Translations under genes and position numbers: made by a program
The notes under the pieces: model-generated
The model's database searches: none
The model's input: the letters and a program-made list of their open reading frames with translations, nothing else
Told to the model about the DNA's origin: nothing
NCBI GenBank assembly: GCA_016124845.1
Contig: WGMW01000009.1
Coordinates: 149,624-213,623 of the forward strand
Reading direction: 5' to 3'
DNA: 64,000 nt
Origin: Flavobacteriales bacterium
Lineage (GTDB): Bacteria > Bacteroidota > Bacteroidia > UBA10329
In this document: one piece after another, positions 14,409 to 41,888 of the stretch
How positions within the stretch are numbered: position 1 is the stretch's first letter
Layout of the letters: the number at the start of each line of letters is the position of its first letter

Positions 14409-14481
<73 letters not shown>

Positions 14482-22979: not shown

Positions 22980-24881
22980 ATGCAAAAGTTAATTGTTACA
23001 ATAGTAGGCCTCGCCTTCTATCTTGTTTCCTATGCTGCTGACCCGACAGGACCAGACAGCACCTACAACGAAGTTGAAGCGCCCGTTTATCAACGAGAAA
23101 TGGACTATAAGGGGCATACCAAGACCAGCTATTATGTAACCATGGACGATGGTGTTCGCTTGGCGGTGAATGTCTACTTGCCCAAAGGGCTGAAAAAGGA
23201 TGAGAAGATTCCTGCCGTCCTTTTCATGACGCGCTATTGGCGAGGTGTTGGTATCAAATGGCCGTTCGCTGGCCTGTTAGATATCGTTCCGCACACACCG
23301 AATTTCCCTGTCCTGGAACTACCAAAATATGGCTACGGACTGATTACTGTGGATGTTCGCGGCAGCGGGGCTTCCGAAGGGACCAAGACCCTCACGCTCT
23401 GCGACATGCGCGAAGTGCTGGATTTCAATAATCTTATCGATTGGGCGGTGGATCAGGAATGGTGCAACGGGAACGTTGGCGCTACGGGCGTTTCATACAT
23501 CGGAAATACGGCACTTTACGCCACTTACAACGAGCATCCAAACCTGAAGGCCATCGTTCCCACCTATTCTGTGTGGGATCTTTATGATGATGTTTCCACG
23601 CCAGGCGGCATCTATTTCCACCAGTTTCTGAAGCAATATGGCTACTTCTGTTCATCGCTCGATAAGAACGTCATCCCAGATAGTCGCAAGCAGAAAGGGG
23701 CTGCGCTTGCCTATGGCGTGGAGCGCGTGAAAGGCTACAGTAAAAAAGACATGGAAAAGGTGTGGGAATCGCACACGTGCAACCACTACCAATGCACGGA
23801 AGGCAGCGTTGCCAACTTCGCAGATGACGAATGGACCATCAATGGCAATTTCCGTCTGAAAGATGTTCTTTCTCCACACATGTTTGCAGACAGGATCAGA
23901 GAATCAGGTACAGCCGTTTACTCGTGGAGCGGTTGGTGGGATGCGGGTTTCTCTCACTCTGCCATCCGCCAGTTCATCAATCTCAATGATGGAAGAAACC
24001 GACTACGATTAGGCCCATGGAACCACGGTGGCGGGGCCAATGTGAGCCCGACCATGGCAAGCGCTTCCGAGCATGATGACGTGAAGGAGGTCGTTCGGTT
24101 TTTCGATTACTATCTTAAAGGTATTGACAACGGTTTTGAGCGTTCTCCTCGCGTGTACTATTACACCATGGTGGAGAATGAGTGGAAGACCGCAGACAAA
24201 TGGCCGATAGATGCGCAACGCAAAAATCTCTACCTCGCCCCAAATGGAAATGCTTCATGGGATGAGACGACTGACGCAGAAAGTTTCACCGCCTACACGG
24301 TTGATACAACCCATGGCATTGGTGCAGATTGCCGCTGGAATTTTGGTACTACACATACAGGAGTGACCTACGCGAACGCAGATGCCGAGGACAGCATCAC
24401 AGCCGTTTTCACCCTACCTGTGCTGGAAGAGGACATGGAGGTGACAGGCCATCCGCAAGTGAATCTTTACCTCAAAAGTGCAACGCAGGACGGTTCTGTT
24501 TTTGCCTACTTGGAGGACATGGACGAGAACGGAAACGTATGGAAGGTAACTGATGGGCAGCTTCGGTTCATCCACCGAAAGATCGTTGCGGAAGCTCCGC
24601 ATTATCAGGATGTGGTTCCTTACCATAGCTATGAACGGGCCGATGCAGAACCCATGGACACCACGGCCGTGGAGTTGGTCTCATTTGATATGCTGCCAAC
24701 CTCTCATCTTTTCAAGAAAGGACATCGCATTCAGATCCGTTTGGCGGGTGTGGATGTGTACAATTTCAAGAACCTGTATCCTAACGGAGGTTCATGGGAA
24801 ATTCACCATGATGCGGAACATCCAACCTCTGTTGAATTGCCTTTGGTTGACAGGAATGTTGCCATGGGAATGGGCGAATGA
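22980..24881 (+). CDS. CocE/NonD family hydrolase (S15 X-Pro dipeptidyl-peptidase-like)
   Basis: 633 aa with a signal peptide, a GxSxG nucleophile (GVSYIG) and a C-terminal beta-sandwich. Confidence 0.75.
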   Translation: MQKLIVTIVGLAFYLVSYAADPTGPDSTYNEVEAPVYQREMDYKGHTKTSYYVTMDDGVRLAVNVYLPKGLKKDEKIPAVLFMTRYWRGVGIKWPFAGLLDIVPHTPNFPVLELPKYGYGLITVDVRGSGASEGTKTLTLCDMREVLDFNNLIDWAVDQEWCNGNVGATGVSYIGNTALYATYNEHPNLKAIVPTYSVWDLYDDVSTPGGIYFHQFLKQYGYFCSSLDKNVIPDSRKQKGAALAYGVERVKGYSKKDMEKVWESHTCNHYQCTEGSVANFADDEWTINGNFRLKDVLSPHMFADRIRESGTAVYSWSGWWDAGFSHSAIRQFINLNDGRNRLRLGPWNHGGGANVSPTMASASEHDDVKEVVRFFDYYLKGIDNGFERSPRVYYYTMVENEWKTADKWPIDAQRKNLYLAPNGNASWDETTDAESFTAYTVDTTHGIGADCRWNFGTTHTGVTYANADAEDSITAVFTLPVLEEDMEVTGHPQVNLYLKSATQDGSVFAYLEDMDENGNVWKVTDGQLRFIHRKIVAEAPHYQDVVPYHSYERADAEPMDTTAVELVSFDMLPTSHLFKKGHRIQIRLAGVDVYNFKNLYPNGGSWEIHHDAEHPTSVELPLVDRNVAMGMGE

Positions 24882-24897
24882 TCCAACTCTCCCCCAT

Positions 24898-24919
24898 CCC
24901 CTCTCTTGCAAGAGAGGGG
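24898..24919. terminator. GC-rich hairpin between convergent genes (likely bidirectional terminator); member of the C/G palindromic repeat family
   Basis: cccctctctt-gc-aagagagggg is a perfect 10-nt inverted repeat. It is preceded by ctcccccaTcccct, which matches the intragenic element at 35409. Confidence 0.45.
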
Positions 24920-24929
24920 CGAGTTGTAG

Positions 24930-25586
24930 TTAAAGCACCTTCGGTCCTTTGATGAAACTGCTGACAGGAACTGCCAGCACAGCCCCAATGATGGGTGCAG
25001 TAATGTAAAGCCACAAATTTTCGAGATGACCTGAGACCAGCGCGGGTCCCAGCGAGCGAGCTGGATTCATACTTGCGCCCGTGATCGGCCCACCGACTAA
25101 GGCCAACAGTGCCACGGTGGCACCGATGGCAATACCCGCCAGCGTTCCTACTTCTTTAGAACCTGTGGCCACCATGATGATGATGAGCATGAGCAGGAAG
25201 GTGATGACCACCTCCATCAAAAATGCCTGCGAGATGGTATCGGAAACGAGTGTGGCACCGAGGTAGGTCGATTCGTTGGGGAACATGAACCGCAGCAGCA
25301 CGCAGGCCAAGATGGAACCCACGCTCTGAGCAAGGATATACGGAATCACTTCCTTCATCGGGAATCTGCCAGAGATCCAAAAGGCGATGGTGACCGCAGG
25401 ATTGATGTGCGCGCCTGAAACATCGCCAAAGGCATACACCACCGCCATGACGATGAGGCCGAAAACGGTGCAGATGGCCAAATGGCCCACTACGCCACCC
25501 GTTACGTCATTCACTACTATGGCCCCGCACCCTGTGAAGACCAACCCGAAGGTTCCGAGTACCTCTGCTAAAAGTTTCCGTGTCAT
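24930..25586 (-). CDS. aqpZ: Aquaporin / MIP family channel
   Basis: Two NPA motifs (HINPAVT, MNPARS) and six TM helices. Confidence 0.9.
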   Translation of the reverse strand: MTRKLLAEVLGTFGLVFTGCGAIVVNDVTGGVVGHLAICTVFGLIVMAVVYAFGDVSGAHINPAVTIAFWISGRFPMKEVIPYILAQSVGSILACVLLRFMFPNESTYLGATLVSDTISQAFLMEVVITFLLMLIIIMVATGSKEVGTLAGIAIGATVALLALVGGPITGASMNPARSLGPALVSGHLENLWLYITAPIIGAVLAVPVSSFIKGPKVL

Positions 25587-33849: not shown

Positions 33850-34680
33850 ATGTCCGCAGCAAAGCCCATTCGTCACATCCGTTCGAAACAGTCGTTCTCC
33901 GATTGGCTGCGGCAACTCATAGAAAGGCGCGAAACGCTGTGGTTCTTCATTTGGAAAGATCTGAAAGTGCAGTACCAGAAACCCGTTTTCGGTTTGCTTT
34001 GGTCTGTTTTCCAGCCACTTGTCTATTTCGGGATCATCCTTTCGGTGATGCGATTTTCAGGCAGAACATCAAGCATTTCAGAAATGTCATTTTCGCTTTA
34101 CCTCATCAGCGGTTTGGCCATTTGGAACTTCACCACCTCCAGTATTTTGGGTGCGGTGAACAGCATTCAATCCAATGCTGGCATCATCAGCAAATCATTC
34201 TTTCCGAGGTTTTACTTGATTCTCGCACCCGTTCTCAAAAGCACATTCGACTTCCTCATCATGCTGCTGATTGTGCTTGGTTTTGAAATCTACTTTCAAC
34301 AACCGTTCGTGTTCGAAAACCTCGGTTTTGTGATGACTTCAGTGTTTATCGCGATGACAACCGCACTCGGTTGGTCAGCCATTGCGGCAAGTTTGGTTGT
34401 GGCCAATCGGCACATCAGACATGCCATTCCTGTACTGCTTTATGCCATGATCTTTGCCCTGCCTGTTTTCTATTCGATGCAGGAAATCGGCAACCCAACG
34501 CTTCAAACTGCTTATCACTTCAACCCAATTGCTGGCGCGATGGACCTGCTGCGCAGCGGTTTCGGAAGCGGAATCACCTTGCAGCCGATGGTTTCATGGT
34601 TACTTCAATCCGTAATCTGGTTAGCGCTCGGAATCATCCTTTTCCGAAGAACAGAAAGAACCTTGGCAGATAACGTATGA
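33850..34680 (+). CDS. wzm: ABC-2 type polysaccharide export permease (Wzm/KpsM/TagG family), copy 1
   Basis: 276 aa with 6 TM helices. N-terminus ETLWFFIWKDLKVQYQKPVFGLLWSVFQPL is typical of ABC-2. Confidence 0.85.
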   Translation: MSAAKPIRHIRSKQSFSDWLRQLIERRETLWFFIWKDLKVQYQKPVFGLLWSVFQPLVYFGIILSVMRFSGRTSSISEMSFSLYLISGLAIWNFTTSSILGAVNSIQSNAGIISKSFFPRFYLILAPVLKSTFDFLIMLLIVLGFEIYFQQPFVFENLGFVMTSVFIAMTTALGWSAIAASLVVANRHIRHAIPVLLYAMIFALPVFYSMQEIGNPTLQTAYHFNPIAGAMDLLRSGFGSGITLQPMVSWLLQSVIWLALGIILFRRTERTLADNV

Positions 34681-35876
34681 AGGTGATCAGCGCAGAACGG
34701 CTTTCGAAATCGTACTTCCTGAAAACGGAAGGCGACCGCGAATTCCACGCGCTGAAAGACATTTCTTTCGACATCAACGAAGGCGAAATAGTTGGCATTA
34801 TTGGCCACAACGGAGCGGGAAAAAGCACGCTTCTGAAACTGCTTTCTGGCATCACACTCCCTACTTCGGGCGAAGCCAAAGTGGTCGGCTCGTTCTCCAG
34901 CCTACTGGAGGTCGGCACAGGTTTCCATCCTGATCTGAGCGGCCGCGACAATATCTTTCTGAATGCTTCCATTCTCGGCATTTCCCGTAAGGAAGTCCAA
35001 GCAGAAATGGACAATATCATTGCGTTTTCGGGCGTGGAAAAATTCATCGACCAACCGCTGCGCACTTACTCCAGCGGCATGAAACTGCGCTTGGCGTTTT
35101 CCATCATCGCGCACCTCAAAACCGACATCATTGCGTTGGACGAGGTGCTTGCTGTGGGCGATTCCATGTTTCAGTTGAAATGCATGGAGCGCATCTTTGA
35201 TTTCAAGCAGCAAGGTCGAACGATTCTGTTCGTCTCACATAATCTGAGTGCAGTGAAAAAACTCTGCGAACGGACAATTGTGCTTAATGCTGGCGAGATT
35301 ATCTACGATGGACCGACAGAGGAAGCGATTGACTTTTATTTGGATTCGAACCGAACGGGAAATGCACTTGACGAAATAAGATTTGTGAAGAGAATTGAAG
35401 TGATGACCTCCCCCAACCCCTCCTTTCCAGGAGGGGAGCTGTCACTTCGCTCTGACGCTGGATCAGCGAACCAGCTCTCCCCCTTGAAAGGGGGAGTACT
35501 CCGCCTGAGGCGGAGGGAGGGGGTCTATACAAGAATTCTCCTCCATTTTCATGAGCTCCCATCCGATTCCGAACTGGACCTCGGCATCAACATCAGCACA
35601 CAAGATGGCATGCCACTCTATCATTTCAGCAACCGATTCTTGGGCAAAACATTGATTCCCAAAAACGGAGCGTTAGAGCTCGAACTGGCCTTCAATCATC
35701 AGTTGAAAGCAGGTAATTACCACGTTTCAGTTTACATCGGCCAAGATGAACAGCAGTTGCTTTGGCAAGAAAATGCTGCCACGCTGACCGTTGCTCCATT
35801 TACGCCTTACGGCTTCCACAATCCTGATGCAATTCAAGCATCAATCATCACAGATTTCGACATTAAGCAGCTGTAG
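34677..35876 (+). CDS. wzt: Polysaccharide export ABC ATP-binding protein (Wzt/TagH family) with C-terminal extension, copy 1
   Basis: Walker A GHNGAGKST, signature YSSGMKLRL and Walker B IIALDEVL. The approximately 160-aa C-terminal domain contains the in-frame repeat insertion. Confidence 0.85.
   Translation: MKVISAERLSKSYFLKTEGDREFHALKDISFDINEGEIVGIIGHNGAGKSTLLKLLSGITLPTSGEAKVVGSFSSLLEVGTGFHPDLSGRDNIFLNASILGISRKEVQAEMDNIIAFSGVEKFIDQPLRTYSSGMKLRLAFSIIAHLKTDIIALDEVLAVGDSMFQLKCMERIFDFKQQGRTILFVSHNLSAVKKLCERTIVLNAGEIIYDGPTEEAIDFYLDSNRTGNALDEIRFVKRIEVMTSPNPSFPGGELSLRSDAGSANQLSPLKGGVLRLRRREGVYTRILLHFHELPSDSELDLGINISTQDGMPLYHFSNRFLGKTLIPKNGALELELAFNHQLKAGNYHVSVYIGQDEQQLLWQENAATLTVAPFTPYGFHNPDAIQASIITDFDIKQL
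35408..35523. repeat. Intragenic C/G-rich triple-hairpin palindromic element inserted in-frame in wzt
   Basis: Three consecutive stem-loops: cccctcc/ggagggg, ctccccc/gggggag and ctccgcc/ggcggag. Length about 116 nt. It encodes the low-complexity SPNPSFPGGELSLRSDAGSANQLSPLKGGVLRLRRREGVY. It shares the ctcccccaNcccct leader with the hairpin at 24889. Confidence 0.5.
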
Positions 35877-39762: not shown

Positions 39763-40635
39763 TTGGGCGCATTCGGAATGGCTACAGGCACAGAAGAAAA
39801 TTGGTCGCTCGTCATCAAGCCGCAGTCAAAATGGCTTGACCTTAAACTCGATGAGATCTGGGATTACCGCGACCTGATCTGGATTTTCGTGAGAAGGGAC
39901 ATTGTGGCAGTTTACAAACAGACCGTGCTTGGTCCGTTGTGGTTCTTCCTTGCACCAATTTTCACTGTCATTGCGTACAATTTTGTTTTTAACACGATTG
40001 CCGGTATTGATACTGATGGTATTCCTCCGTTGGTATTTTATATGGCAGGCACCACACTTTGGAATTATTTTCAGGTCAGTTTTACAAGTACATCAAATAC
40101 GTTTACCGGAAACGCGGCCATTTTTGGCAAGGTCTATTTTCCCCGAATGGTGGCCCCTATCTCCATGGTTATTTCCGGCATGTTCAAATTCGGAGTTCAG
40201 ATGTTGATGTTCCTGACCTTTCTTGGATATTACTTGATATTTGAGCAGACCAGCTTACATTTTACAAAGTGGGTGTTTGCATTTCCTTTACTCGTTCTTA
40301 TGATGAGCGGTCTATCGTTGGGATTTGGAATTATTGTTTCCGCCCTTACCACGAAGTATCGTGACCTTAAGAACTTCATTGGATTCGGAGTGACTCTGCT
40401 GATGTATGTTACCCCTATCATCTATCCGGCATCCGCTCTCAAAGGCAATCTTGTTTGGGCGGTCAGGCTGAATCCCATCGCTCCGATCATTGAAGCCTTC
40501 AGGCTCGGTTTTACCGGAAACGGGACTGTTTCGGTAGCTGAGGTGGTATATAGCGGAATTTTCACACTGATCATTCTGTTTATTGGTTTGGTAACATTCC
40601 ATCGTGTGGAACGAACATTTATGGATACTGTCTGA
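39763..40635 (+). CDS. wzm: ABC-2 type polysaccharide export permease (Wzm family), copy 2
   Basis: 290 aa with 6 TM helices. The ABC-2 N-terminal motif (LIWIFVRRDIVAVYKQTVLGPLWFFLAP) is present. Confidence 0.85.
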   Translation: MGAFGMATGTEENWSLVIKPQSKWLDLKLDEIWDYRDLIWIFVRRDIVAVYKQTVLGPLWFFLAPIFTVIAYNFVFNTIAGIDTDGIPPLVFYMAGTTLWNYFQVSFTSTSNTFTGNAAIFGKVYFPRMVAPISMVISGMFKFGVQMLMFLTFLGYYLIFEQTSLHFTKWVFAFPLLVLMMSGLSLGFGIIVSALTTKYRDLKNFIGFGVTLLMYVTPIIYPASALKGNLVWAVRLNPIAPIIEAFRLGFTGNGTVSVAEVVYSGIFTLIILFIGLVTFHRVERTFMDTV

Positions 40636-41888
40636 TGAGCGATGTGGTCATTAAGGTTGAAAACCTTTCCAAGCAATATAGGCTTGGAATGGTCGGTGCA
40701 GGGACCTTGCGCGAAGATCTGGTCGGATGGTGGTACCGAGTTCGAGGAAAAGAAGATCCCTACCTGAAAATCGGTGAGGCCAATGATCGTTCCTCTACGG
40801 GAAACAGTGATTACGTCTGGGCACTTCGGGATATAGATTTTGAAGTTAAAAAAGGGGAAGTTTTAGGAATCATTGGCAAAAATGGAGCAGGCAAGAGTAC
40901 ACTTCTAAAACTACTTTCCAGAGTTACAGCACCAACTTCTGGGACAATCAAAGCCAAAGGAAGGATTGCAAGTCTTCTGGAAGTTGGAACAGGTTTTCAT
41001 CCTGAATTGACAGGTAGAGAGAACATCTACCTGAATGGTGCCATTATGGGAATGCGGAAATCTGAAATTACCTCCAAATTTGACGAGATAGTCGATTTTG
41101 CAGGTGTGCAGAGATATGTTGACACACCTGTAAAAAGATATTCATCTGGAATGTATGTGCGGTTAGCATTTGCAGTTGCAGCACATCTGGAACCGGAGAT
41201 TTTGATCGTAGATGAGGTGCTTGCTGTCGGTGATGCCGAATTTCAGCGAAAGGCCATAGGTAAGATGGAAGATGTTTCGAATGCGGAAGGGCGCACGGTT
41301 CTTTTCGTAAGCCACAATATGAAGGCTGTACGTTCTCTATGTTCGCGTGCTATCTTATTAGAAAATGGTCAAGTTACAATGAATGCGGACTCAGATGATG
41401 TGGTTGATCGCTACCTGTACACCAACTACCATAGCGAGAGTAAGCTTGTTTATGAAGTTCCTGACGTAGACAATTCATCGGAGGCCCACCTGCTATCAGC
41501 CAAGGTAATCAGCGACACACCTATAACTACGGAGAGCACCATCATGCTTGAAGCAGAGGTTTTGTTCAACGCGGCAGTAGAATTCCACATGAACATTCAT
41601 GTCTATTCCTTCGAGCGAGACCACTTGTTCCAAGCTTCGAGTAAGGTACTAAAGTCGCAGAAGGGAGATAAGGTAAAAGTCCGTTTTACTATTCCGCCAC
41701 ACCTACTGAATGAGAAGTTGCACTCCATCACGGTCACCTTCGTTAAAAACCGATCGACCACCTTTAAACTTATCGATAACGTGCTGGTATTCGGTATTTC
41801 CGAAGACAGGAACAACCTGAACTGGTATGGCAAAACTCCAGGACTGCTGAAACCGGAAATTCCGTCAATCGTTACCAAGCTGAAATGA
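40635..41888 (+). CDS. wzt: Polysaccharide export ABC ATP-binding protein (Wzt family) with C-terminal extension, copy 2
   Basis: Walker A GKNGAGKST, signature YSSGMYVRL and Walker B ILIVDEVL. An approximately 170-aa C-terminal beta-rich domain is present. Confidence 0.85.
   Translation: MSDVVIKVENLSKQYRLGMVGAGTLREDLVGWWYRVRGKEDPYLKIGEANDRSSTGNSDYVWALRDIDFEVKKGEVLGIIGKNGAGKSTLLKLLSRVTAPTSGTIKAKGRIASLLEVGTGFHPELTGRENIYLNGAIMGMRKSEITSKFDEIVDFAGVQRYVDTPVKRYSSGMYVRLAFAVAAHLEPEILIVDEVLAVGDAEFQRKAIGKMEDVSNAEGRTVLFVSHNMKAVRSLCSRAILLENGQVTMNADSDDVVDRYLYTNYHSESKLVYEVPDVDNSSEAHLLSAKVISDTPITTESTIMLEAEVLFNAAVEFHMNIHVYSFERDHLFQASSKVLKSQKGDKVKVRFTIPPHLLNEKLHSITVTFVKNRSTTFKLIDNVLVFGISEDRNNLNWYGKTPGLLKPEIPSIVTKLK

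Follow-up and report, generated by a model that had tools for sequence, protein, structure and literature searches.

In this study, a stretch of 64,000 nucleotides (nt) from contig WGMW01000009.1 of an uncultured marine Flavobacteriales bacterium (GCA_016124845.1), called the window below, was analyzed with regard to a hairpin element of 117-122 nt that is inserted in frame into the gene wzt copy 1. This gene (34677..35876, + strand) encodes the 399-aa ATPase of an O-antigen/polysaccharide ATP-binding cassette (ABC) exporter, as judged from the list of open reading frames (ORFs), Pfam, AlphaFold2, and Foldseek. It overlaps both the upstream wzm gene (33850..34680) and the downstream glycosyltransferase gene (35876..). 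In the 399-aa ORF, Pfam detects ABC_tran at residues 26-157 (1e-20) and Wzt_C at residues 282-375 (6e-9). The AlphaFold2 model, built with 109 sequences, has a mean predicted local distance difference test (pLDDT) score of 86.9, and Foldseek matches it best to the full-length A. aeolicus WzmWzt structures 8DNE, 7K2T, and 8DKU. For the window wzm ORF itself no Pfam family was found at E ≤ 0.01; its counterparts by synteny in the related contigs L001, L003, L005, and L007 have an ABC2_membrane domain. With an ABC domain, a Wzt_C domain, and an adjacent permease gene, the host gene is a wzt gene.

The inserted element extends from TGA-CCTCCCCC to GGAGGGGG-TC (35404..35525, residues ~244-283) and is a doublet without an ORF, delimited by orthologue alignments, by comparison of filled and empty DNA, and by folding; all of its parts are given on the + strand. 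It begins with the 5′ outer arm CCTCCCCC (35407..35414), the left terminal inverted repeat, which pairs with 35516-35523 and is followed by the 2-nt spacer AA. Hairpin 1, CCCCTCCT-TTCC-AGGAGGGG (8 bp; 35417..35436), is the core of a family-wide 5′ module. A variable centre of 40 nt with a weak GCTGGATCAGC palindrome (35437..35476) leads to hairpin 2, CTCCCCCT-TGAA-AGGGGGAG (8 bp; 35477..35496), which is the hairpin of the 3′ inverted module. Separated from hairpin 2 by TA, an extra hairpin 3, CTCCGCC-TGA-GGCGGAG (7 bp; 35499..35515), comes next and precedes the 3′ outer arm GGAGGGGG (35516..35523), the right terminal inverted repeat, which was recognized from folds and arm covariation. The GC content of the element is 61%, compared with 46.7% for the window.

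A preliminary description of this DNA had reported three back-to-back, perfect or near-perfect stem-loops. All three are perfect, but they are not all adjacent, since the 40-nt centre (35437-35476) separates the first from the second. The length of 116 nt, presented there as a multiple of three, has to be corrected to 39-40 codons, and the outer stem of CCTCCCCC (35407-35414) and GGAGGGGG (35516-35523), which encloses everything, had been overlooked. Its statements that the reading frame is kept and that the stretch encodes a low-complexity peptide were right: the 399-aa ORF is continuous, the quoted peptide is encoded in ORF 34677..35876, and only one of the three forward frames of the element is free of stop codons, namely the one used by wzt.

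Folding as RNA gave a minimum free energy of −72.2 kcal/mol, compared with −52.8 ± 3.9 for shuffled sequences (z = −4.98; 0 of 200 shuffles as good), so the fold is better than expected by chance, and folding of 35407-35523 as DNA gave z = −5.19. Because the first and last octamers pair, 35407-35523 forms a closed multi-branch structure. A permissive scan with Rfam 15 at the element yielded only sub-threshold noise from microRNA models and no family; the sole match at gathering level in the window is a tRNA at 14409-14481. No terminator-like site was found at the element. The closed four-way fold was also considered as a tRNA-like cloverleaf, which was rejected, as its stems repeat one motif and the Rfam tRNA model fails to match.

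Orthologues of the host protein, syntenic and from uncultured marine Flavobacteriales, were obtained by a search of 5.8 billion proteins, among which the closest to the window Wzt has ~84% identity. In the alignment, the 39 residues are absent from 103 of 109 orthologues; the filled alleles are that of the window and P0019-P0023. All 16 closest orthologues (75-84% identity outside the insert) are empty and have 363-366 aa instead of 399 aa, and the excess is exactly 36 codons when 399 aa are compared with 363 aa. In the AlphaFold2 model, residues ~246-282 lie in a loop with pLDDT < 50 for 250-276, while the remainder is confident. The loop is flanked by strands 237-245 and 283-291, the first β-hairpin of the C-terminal domain. 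The element is thus an in-frame insertion in a disordered surface loop, and its predicted placement there fits tolerance at least as well as function. Another orthologue, P0070, has an unrelated insertion of ~20 aa (SLTDVPDKNKSAPTTILRNA) at window residues ~244-284, in the same β1-β2 loop, so this loop is generally tolerant of insertions.

The preliminary description had based the insertion on the lack of a counterpart in the paralogous Wzt copy 2. Two wzm/wzt pairs are indeed found in one glycosyltransferase-rich cluster (window 33850-35876 and 39763-41888), and the ATPase domains of Wzt copies 1 and 2 are 52% identical. As their C-terminal domains are unalignable, this comparison is uninformative, and the conclusion stands on the orthologues instead.

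The wzt element is one member of a family. For detection of the family, the pattern CCTCCCCC-NN-CCCCTCC-loop-GGAGGGG was scanned exactly, using one genome per species. The module pattern occurs at no fewer than 120 loci (at least 120), against a chance expectation of ~0.5 that we estimated for uniform base composition. Among the matches listed, ~85 of 120 loci (about 71%) belong to Bacteroidota, with carriers in Prevotella, Bacteroidaceae, Flavobacterium, Chitinophagaceae, and Prolixibacteraceae; the others are mainly from Planctomycetota, Desulfobacterota, and Proteobacteria, whose modules have longer stems. Cultured carriers include Flavobacterium restrictum and F. gawalongense as well as Prevotella jejuni and Segatella maculosa. 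In strain LB1R34 of F. restrictum, SSPNPSEGGE is found in LeuRS, and in strain GSP16 of F. gawalongense the carrier protein is a P-type ATPase. All filled wzt alleles start with the module CCTCCCCC-NN-YCCCTCC-loop-GGAGGGG, and the 5′ outer arm of the wzt element also starts the module in other genomes. In the literature searched, the motif, the family, and its association with DUF559 described below are not reported, and this coverage was incomplete and is no proof of novelty; the family is apparently undescribed.

Solo 27-nt modules, arrays, ORF-less doublets of 70-160 nt, and cassettes bracketing a DUF559 gene were distinguished as forms of the family. A doublet consists of a module, a non-conserved spacer, and a second inverted module (hairpin-NN-GGGGGAGG). 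Among the matches listed, 26 ORF-less doublets (69-162 nt) have the same end architecture as the wzt element, which is a typical doublet of the family. Of 308 hairpin pairs, 68 have complementary outer arms within an element, compared with 38.4 ± 4.5 for permuted partners, and the 2-nt spacer covaries between the two ends; the element ends are therefore true inverted repeats. With the whole wzt element as nhmmer query, only the ends match other doublets and the centre is not conserved. L003, L005, and L007 have shorter inserts at this wzt site with which the centre is partly shared, and GGAGGGGAGCTG...GCTGGWTCAGC is found in the centres of both the wzt element and the L003 insert.

A second member in the window, the solo module CTCTCCCCC-AT-CCCCTCTCT-TGCA-AGAGAGGGG (24884..24921, + strand), is intergenic and lies just past the stop of ORF 22980..24881 and ahead of the convergent ORF 24930..25586. 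It was missed by a general repeat scan and by the strict CCCCTCC...GGAGGGG pattern and was found by a looser hairpin scan. The module string proposed in the preliminary description matches this second site, where the pattern is expected 0 times by chance, and the further copies it envisaged exist at the genome loci given above, in frame in many real enzymes. These copies bear on the possibility that the stretch is a low-complexity loop grown locally, by slippage or hairpin-driven duplication, and never mobile. C-run/G-run sequences are slippage-prone and the unrelated insertion in P0070 speaks for a tolerant loop, but the recurrence of the same 27-nt module, arm, and spacer at so many loci of unrelated genes and genera and at 24884-24921 contradicts local growth and leaves it hardly credible.

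Several arrays were observed in addition. In a metagenome-assembled genome of Prolixibacteraceae (L105:156-1030), four module-headed repeat copies are spaced by 349, 175, and 174 nt; a DUF559 gene 3.7 kb from these repeats is flanked by a different hairpin repeat, ctccccctggggtcgggggtaaat. In Prevotella, the loci L041:3000-5200, L083:4790-5130, and L115 contain head-to-tail arrays of full and truncated modules (e.g. GCCTCCCCCGAAAG), and in L041 a DUF559 pseudogene, interrupted by an internal stop, is enclosed by these arrays upstream of a gene that by eye is guanylate-kinase-like. In L039, L091, and L112 (Rhodocyclaceae/Methyloversatilis), a stretch of ~70 nt downstream of the module is conserved (...gcgcctggcggcgcgtgccgccttgccttggggcggcc); this betaproteobacterial stretch may be a different element that shares the hairpin by coincidence.

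The family is physically associated with DUF559 genes. DUF559 ORFs occur in 7 of the 120 module-selected loci among the matches listed, and in six of them (L110, L041, L072, L114, L031, L019) modules adjoin or bracket the ORF. The L110 LeuRS gene has, between two inverted modules, an in-frame stretch of ~110 aa that is DUF559 (Pfam, E = 4.7e-37). For the reverse test, 80 metagenome DUF559 loci were selected with hairpins being ignored; they were fetched with an alignment of the module-adjacent DUF559 proteins, from which the L041 copy was left out for its internal stop. A perfect C-run hairpin is located within 200 nt (≤200 nt) of the DUF559 ORF in 65 of these 80 loci and on both sides in 42, and hairpin density is 3.66 per kb near the DUF559 ORF, compared with 0.20 per kb at distances >400 nt (18-fold). 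The cassette layout is uniform, with cCTC(A/C)CCC-NN-hairpin, the ORF, and hairpin-NN-GGGG(T/G)GAGGtc in this order.

In thirty of the 80 cassettes, the DUF559 frame continues without a stop for at least 80 codons to either side, and these are therefore in-frame fusions inside host genes. Ten fusion hosts were confirmed by Pfam, namely LeuRS, MetH, IleRS, MetRS, RecG, Tgt, Acs, a MiaB-like enzyme, a Type ISP restriction enzyme, and a UvrD-like helicase; the host domains are often split in two by the cassette, and no Hint/intein domain was found in these ten fusions (Pfam, E ≤ 1e-5). The same leuS site contains a DUF559 cassette in ten metagenome loci and in L110. Cassettes in leuS, e.g. L110:3669-4037 and those in L130, L131, L136, L141, L147, L152, L156, and L157 (~1501-1860), lie between a ...GAxVxF segment and VFTTRPDT, with module-encoded linkers on each side, in many organisms. 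In MetH, in-frame cassettes between the B12-binding cap and the B12-binding domain were seen in L142, L149, L155, L159, L162, and L166 (~1501-1870), and this site may be a further recurrent 'homing' site. At L200:1247-1480, a tandem of at least three 64-nt units, each with a module-like hairpin and both outer arms, lies beside a DUF559 gene.

Solo modules, doublets, and cassettes all reside in frame in real genes. Modules are depleted from coding DNA yet far from excluded, as 44 of 142 (31%) lie in long open frames compared with 65% of random positions. Module hosts confirmed by Pfam include a UvrD-type helicase, acetyl-CoA synthetase (Acs), IleRS, LeuRS, MnmA, a formyltransferase (Fmt), a P-type ATPase, and methylmalonyl-CoA mutase. 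In two LeuRS orthologues with 67% identity, the presence and absence of modules are reciprocal. As read from the sequence, all six frames of the 27-nt module are free of stop codons. The frame encoding x-SPNPS-x-GGE is used by 15 of 22 forward-oriented in-gene modules, compared with ~7 expected, and Wzt uses it too (TSPNPSFPGGE); this favoured frame encodes a flexible Ser/Pro/Asn/Gly/Glu linker. Such a bias is expected only under translation, and the modules thus appear to be translated, as presumably is the Wzt insert. The Flavobacterium gawalongense P-type ATPase (L042:1081-3558) has two module-derived inserts, SSPNPSEGGE and ...SSPSPSGRVGEGN.

These frames also bear on the idea that the element acts at the RNA level, by a programmed pause, by translational bypass, or as an excised intervening sequence, or that it has been recruited as a linker altering glycan recognition by Wzt. 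The very stable closed fold joins the two host flanks, the element is positioned at the junction of ATPase and C-terminal domain, and some elements in ORFs do use bypassing, as in T4 gene 60 (bioRxiv 10.1101/2022.08.31.505936). We nevertheless judge such a role to be very improbable: the element is in frame and stop-free only in the frame used, family members share a frame bias, DUF559 cassettes are fused in frame on both sides, and the searches of the element for terminator-like sites and Rfam families found none. Excision or bypass is disfavoured because neither the frame bias nor a stop-free in-frame insert nor the in-frame fusion of the cassettes would then be selected, and a Wzt-specific function because these modules recur across dozens of unrelated proteins.

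With regard to the enzyme that moves the family, clustering of 792 ORFs near modules (8-kb loci, matches listed) gave no transposase family, and DUF559 is the only recurrent mobility-type family beside modules in this clustering. The DUF559 profile matches the uncharacterised structure 3HRL (E = 3e-32) and, more distantly, the I-Bth0305I catalytic domain (3R3P, E = 4.5e-5); Vsr, DUF559, and I-Bth0305I have been placed in one clade (PMC3424549, PMC3239194). The conserved DUF559 residues E-x-D...H...D are intact. DUF559 is accordingly described here as the putative mobilising enzyme. Alternatively, the family could be a REP/REPIN- or MITE-like element (repetitive extragenic palindromic, REP; MITE, a miniature transposable element with inverted repeats) moved by an unlinked transposase of the IS200/RAYT or DDE type (RAYT, REP-associated tyrosine transposase), with DUF559 as cargo, hitch-hiker, or landing site. 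The inverted hairpin doublet resembles REPINs and bacterial interspersed mosaic elements (BIMEs), arrays of modules exist and both strands carry them, their depletion from coding DNA (31% vs 65% random) is as in REPs, the many unrelated sites fit transposition better than homing, and an enzyme acting in trans may be remote from its substrates. On the other hand, no recurrent transposase family accompanies the modules in the 120 loci listed, the modules have no GTAG or CGTC tag of the REP superfamilies (PMC3733652), and DUF559 is bracketed on both sides by inverted, 18-fold enriched hairpins, which is the layout of a RAYT/REPtron with a different enzyme. We therefore consider a transposase unlikely, though it deserves to be taken seriously.

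The history of the wzt site was followed with a tree from which the insert region had been left out. In this tree, the window allele lies deep within a clade whose other members are empty; P0019, P0021, P0020, and P0023 group together, and P0022 nests among empty alleles. Compared by sliding identity, the upstream flank of the insert (RFVKRIEVMT, residues 235-244, containing ATTGAA; 35379..35406, + strand) has an identity of 0.50 to the filled alleles of the distant clade; for the empty alleles there and for the window's own clade, the value is 0.20 each. K-x-I-E (ATTGAA) precedes the insert in six of six filled alleles, and beyond the flank, on either side, the window gene resembles the rest of its clade. 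The inserts of P0019-P0023 are shorter; the 5′ module and part of the centre are kept and the 3′ half is lost. The patchy filled alleles together with the shared flank fit a lateral, site-specific spread with a short co-converted tract, where the flank would have been transferred along with the insert or would be a preferred target.

Vertical inheritance of an ancient insertion with many precise losses, the element being a relic without recent mobility or lateral spread, would explain part of this pattern, as the 5′ module and part of the centre shared by P0019-P0023 and the window fit a single origin and the 3′ halves in P0019-P0023 have decayed. It needs many independent clean losses, however, given 103 of 109 empty alleles, with the window deep in an empty clade and P0022 among empty alleles; also, the window copy retains three perfect hairpins, and the flank signature goes with the insert and not with the clade. 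This course of events is regarded as very improbable.

Starting from the insertion, the family membership, and the inverted-repeat architecture demonstrated above, we consider it probable on balance that the wzt stretch is an ORF-less derivative of a DUF559-associated element that is translated as a loop and was spread by homing-like recombination. The element would be a non-autonomous mobile element, with two inverted hairpin modules around a non-conserved centre, that invaded the Wzt C-terminal domain in the loop joining its first two β-strands, with the frame kept, and is read through as a disordered loop of about 36-39 extra residues. A DUF559 nuclease would supply the mobility in trans by breaking empty sites, which on repair with a filled allele as template would receive the element and some adjoining sequence, in a homing-like gene conversion; new sites would arise from rare ectopic events. 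Spread at allelic sites would thus putatively be homing-like.

Several points weigh against this explanation. PD-(D/E)xK nucleases are not transposases, so the spread to many non-homologous sites is left unexplained. A DUF559 gene is absent from the window and from the related contigs L001-L008, no similarity to DUF559 cassettes is detectable inside the wzt element so that the link consists of shared termini only, and the family copies counted for the source genome are two, within the 64-kb window. The 80 DUF559 loci represent one DUF559 subfamily, as module-adjacent DUF559 proteins were the query. The shared flank is short (about 7-10 codons) and could reflect target preference or structural compensation rather than co-conversion. 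Finally, in the comparison of filled and empty DNA, the nearest empty allele, with a protein identity of only ~84%, is too diverged to define a target-site duplication or an exact boundary.

A wider proposal, which we put forward tentatively and at somewhat less than even odds, is that the Wzt insert is a miniature of a class of selfish elements in which a DUF559 homing-type gene is bracketed by linker-coding inverted hairpins and retained in the products of essential genes. Such a class would enter conserved sites of LeuRS, MetH, IleRS, MetRS, RecG, Tgt, and others, would survive by being read through as an extra domain or loop and not by splicing, gene splitting, or bypassing, and would have left ORF-less doublets and solo modules scattered through Bacteroidota proteomes. 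The cassette form has a substantial chance of representing a new class. Bacteroidota largely do without Shine-Dalgarno initiation. Hairpins rich in GGAGG may therefore be unusually harmless inside their genes, which could account for the bias of the family towards this phylum.

The preliminary description had likened the stretch to Rickettsia palindromic elements (RPEs) and to REP- or MITE-like in-frame palindromes. This holds for the behaviour; the element belongs to no RPE family and is without the defining REP marks. RPEs, as far as they are summarised in PMC3733652, are in-frame palindromic repeats in Rickettsia genes (Ogata et al. 2000). Both are hairpin repeats of about 100-150 nt that occur in many copies, lie in frame in genes of functional proteins, and encode surface peptides, and no mobilising enzyme is known for either; in Wzt as in other hosts, an in-frame insertion at the surface of a functional protein was found. 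Membership in the Rickettsia RPE sequence families was not found: the wzt host is an uncultured marine Flavobacteriales bacterium and the family is mainly from Bacteroidota, not Rickettsiales, and its C-run/G-run sequence is apparently unrelated, no RPE consensus having been compared. Unlike RPEs, the family is modular (solo, doublet, cassette) and has the recurrent partner DUF559, which RPEs lack.

Other short hairpin elements that invade protein-coding genes and are GC-rich are the mitochondrial GC clusters and 'byps' of yeasts, which Lang and co-workers are said to have described in 2014. In contrast to byps, which reportedly are skipped by the ribosome and independent of frame, the family keeps the frame and shows a frame bias.

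REPs are imperfect palindromes of 20-40 nt that are tagged with GTAG or CGTC at one end, and some are found inside genes (PMC3733652). REPs, BIMEs, REPINs, and REPtrons resemble the family in being short GC-rich palindromes, in forming inverted doublets and clusters, and in having a nuclease-type gene between inverted units. Size and palindrome fit, but the module is flanked by CCTCCCCC-NN and has no GTAG/CGTC tag, the bracketed gene is a PD-(D/E)xK DUF559 gene and not a Y1 HUH transposase (RAYT), and a much larger share of the copies is in coding DNA, with a preferred reading frame. MITEs such as Nezha, Correia/NEMIS, and RUP also have 70-300 bp, terminal inverted repeats, no ORF, and a larger relative sharing the ends; here, the larger relatives carry the endonuclease DUF559 instead of a transposase, and the ends themselves are hairpins.

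Homing endonuclease genes in ORFs (inteins, group I introns, T4 mobA/gene 60, mobE) are likewise patchily distributed with flanks that travel along, and in both cases the same conserved site of essential genes is reused across lineages (leuS, metH). The Vsr-like EDxHD family with I-Bth0305I (PMC3239194) has a Vsr-like nuclease fold, as have the DUF559 cassettes. Protein splicing, RNA splicing, split genes with added tails, and bypassing are listed as rescue strategies of such insertions (bioRxiv 10.1101/2022.08.31.505936). In contrast, the inserts described here use none of these, as they are read through and stay in the protein via module-encoded linkers, and the Wzt copy has neither a nuclease gene nor an ORF of its own. 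At the Wzt element no Rfam intron was found, and the reading frames of the DUF559 fusions are continuous. It also differs from a bypass of the T4 gene 60 type, since the Wzt insert is in frame, without a stop in the frame used, and part of a family with a frame bias. Taken together, the element behaves like RPEs and is similar in architecture to REPINs and MITEs, while the defining tests of each gave a negative outcome.

For the movement of this family of in-frame repeats, DUF559 is a concrete candidate enzyme; if true, the class of DUF559 cassettes would suggest how RPE-type repeats are mobilised. It would also, if true, add a further way for endonuclease genes to persist inside essential genes, by being translated through with the help of repeat-encoded linkers. 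For Wzt, the first β-hairpin loop of the C-terminal domain has proven to be insertion-tolerant. Many proteins of Bacteroidota carry parasitic segments of the SPNPS-x-GGE or PLSFGEGLG type or a whole DUF559 domain, and such inserts can mislead domain annotation, alignments, and structure models.

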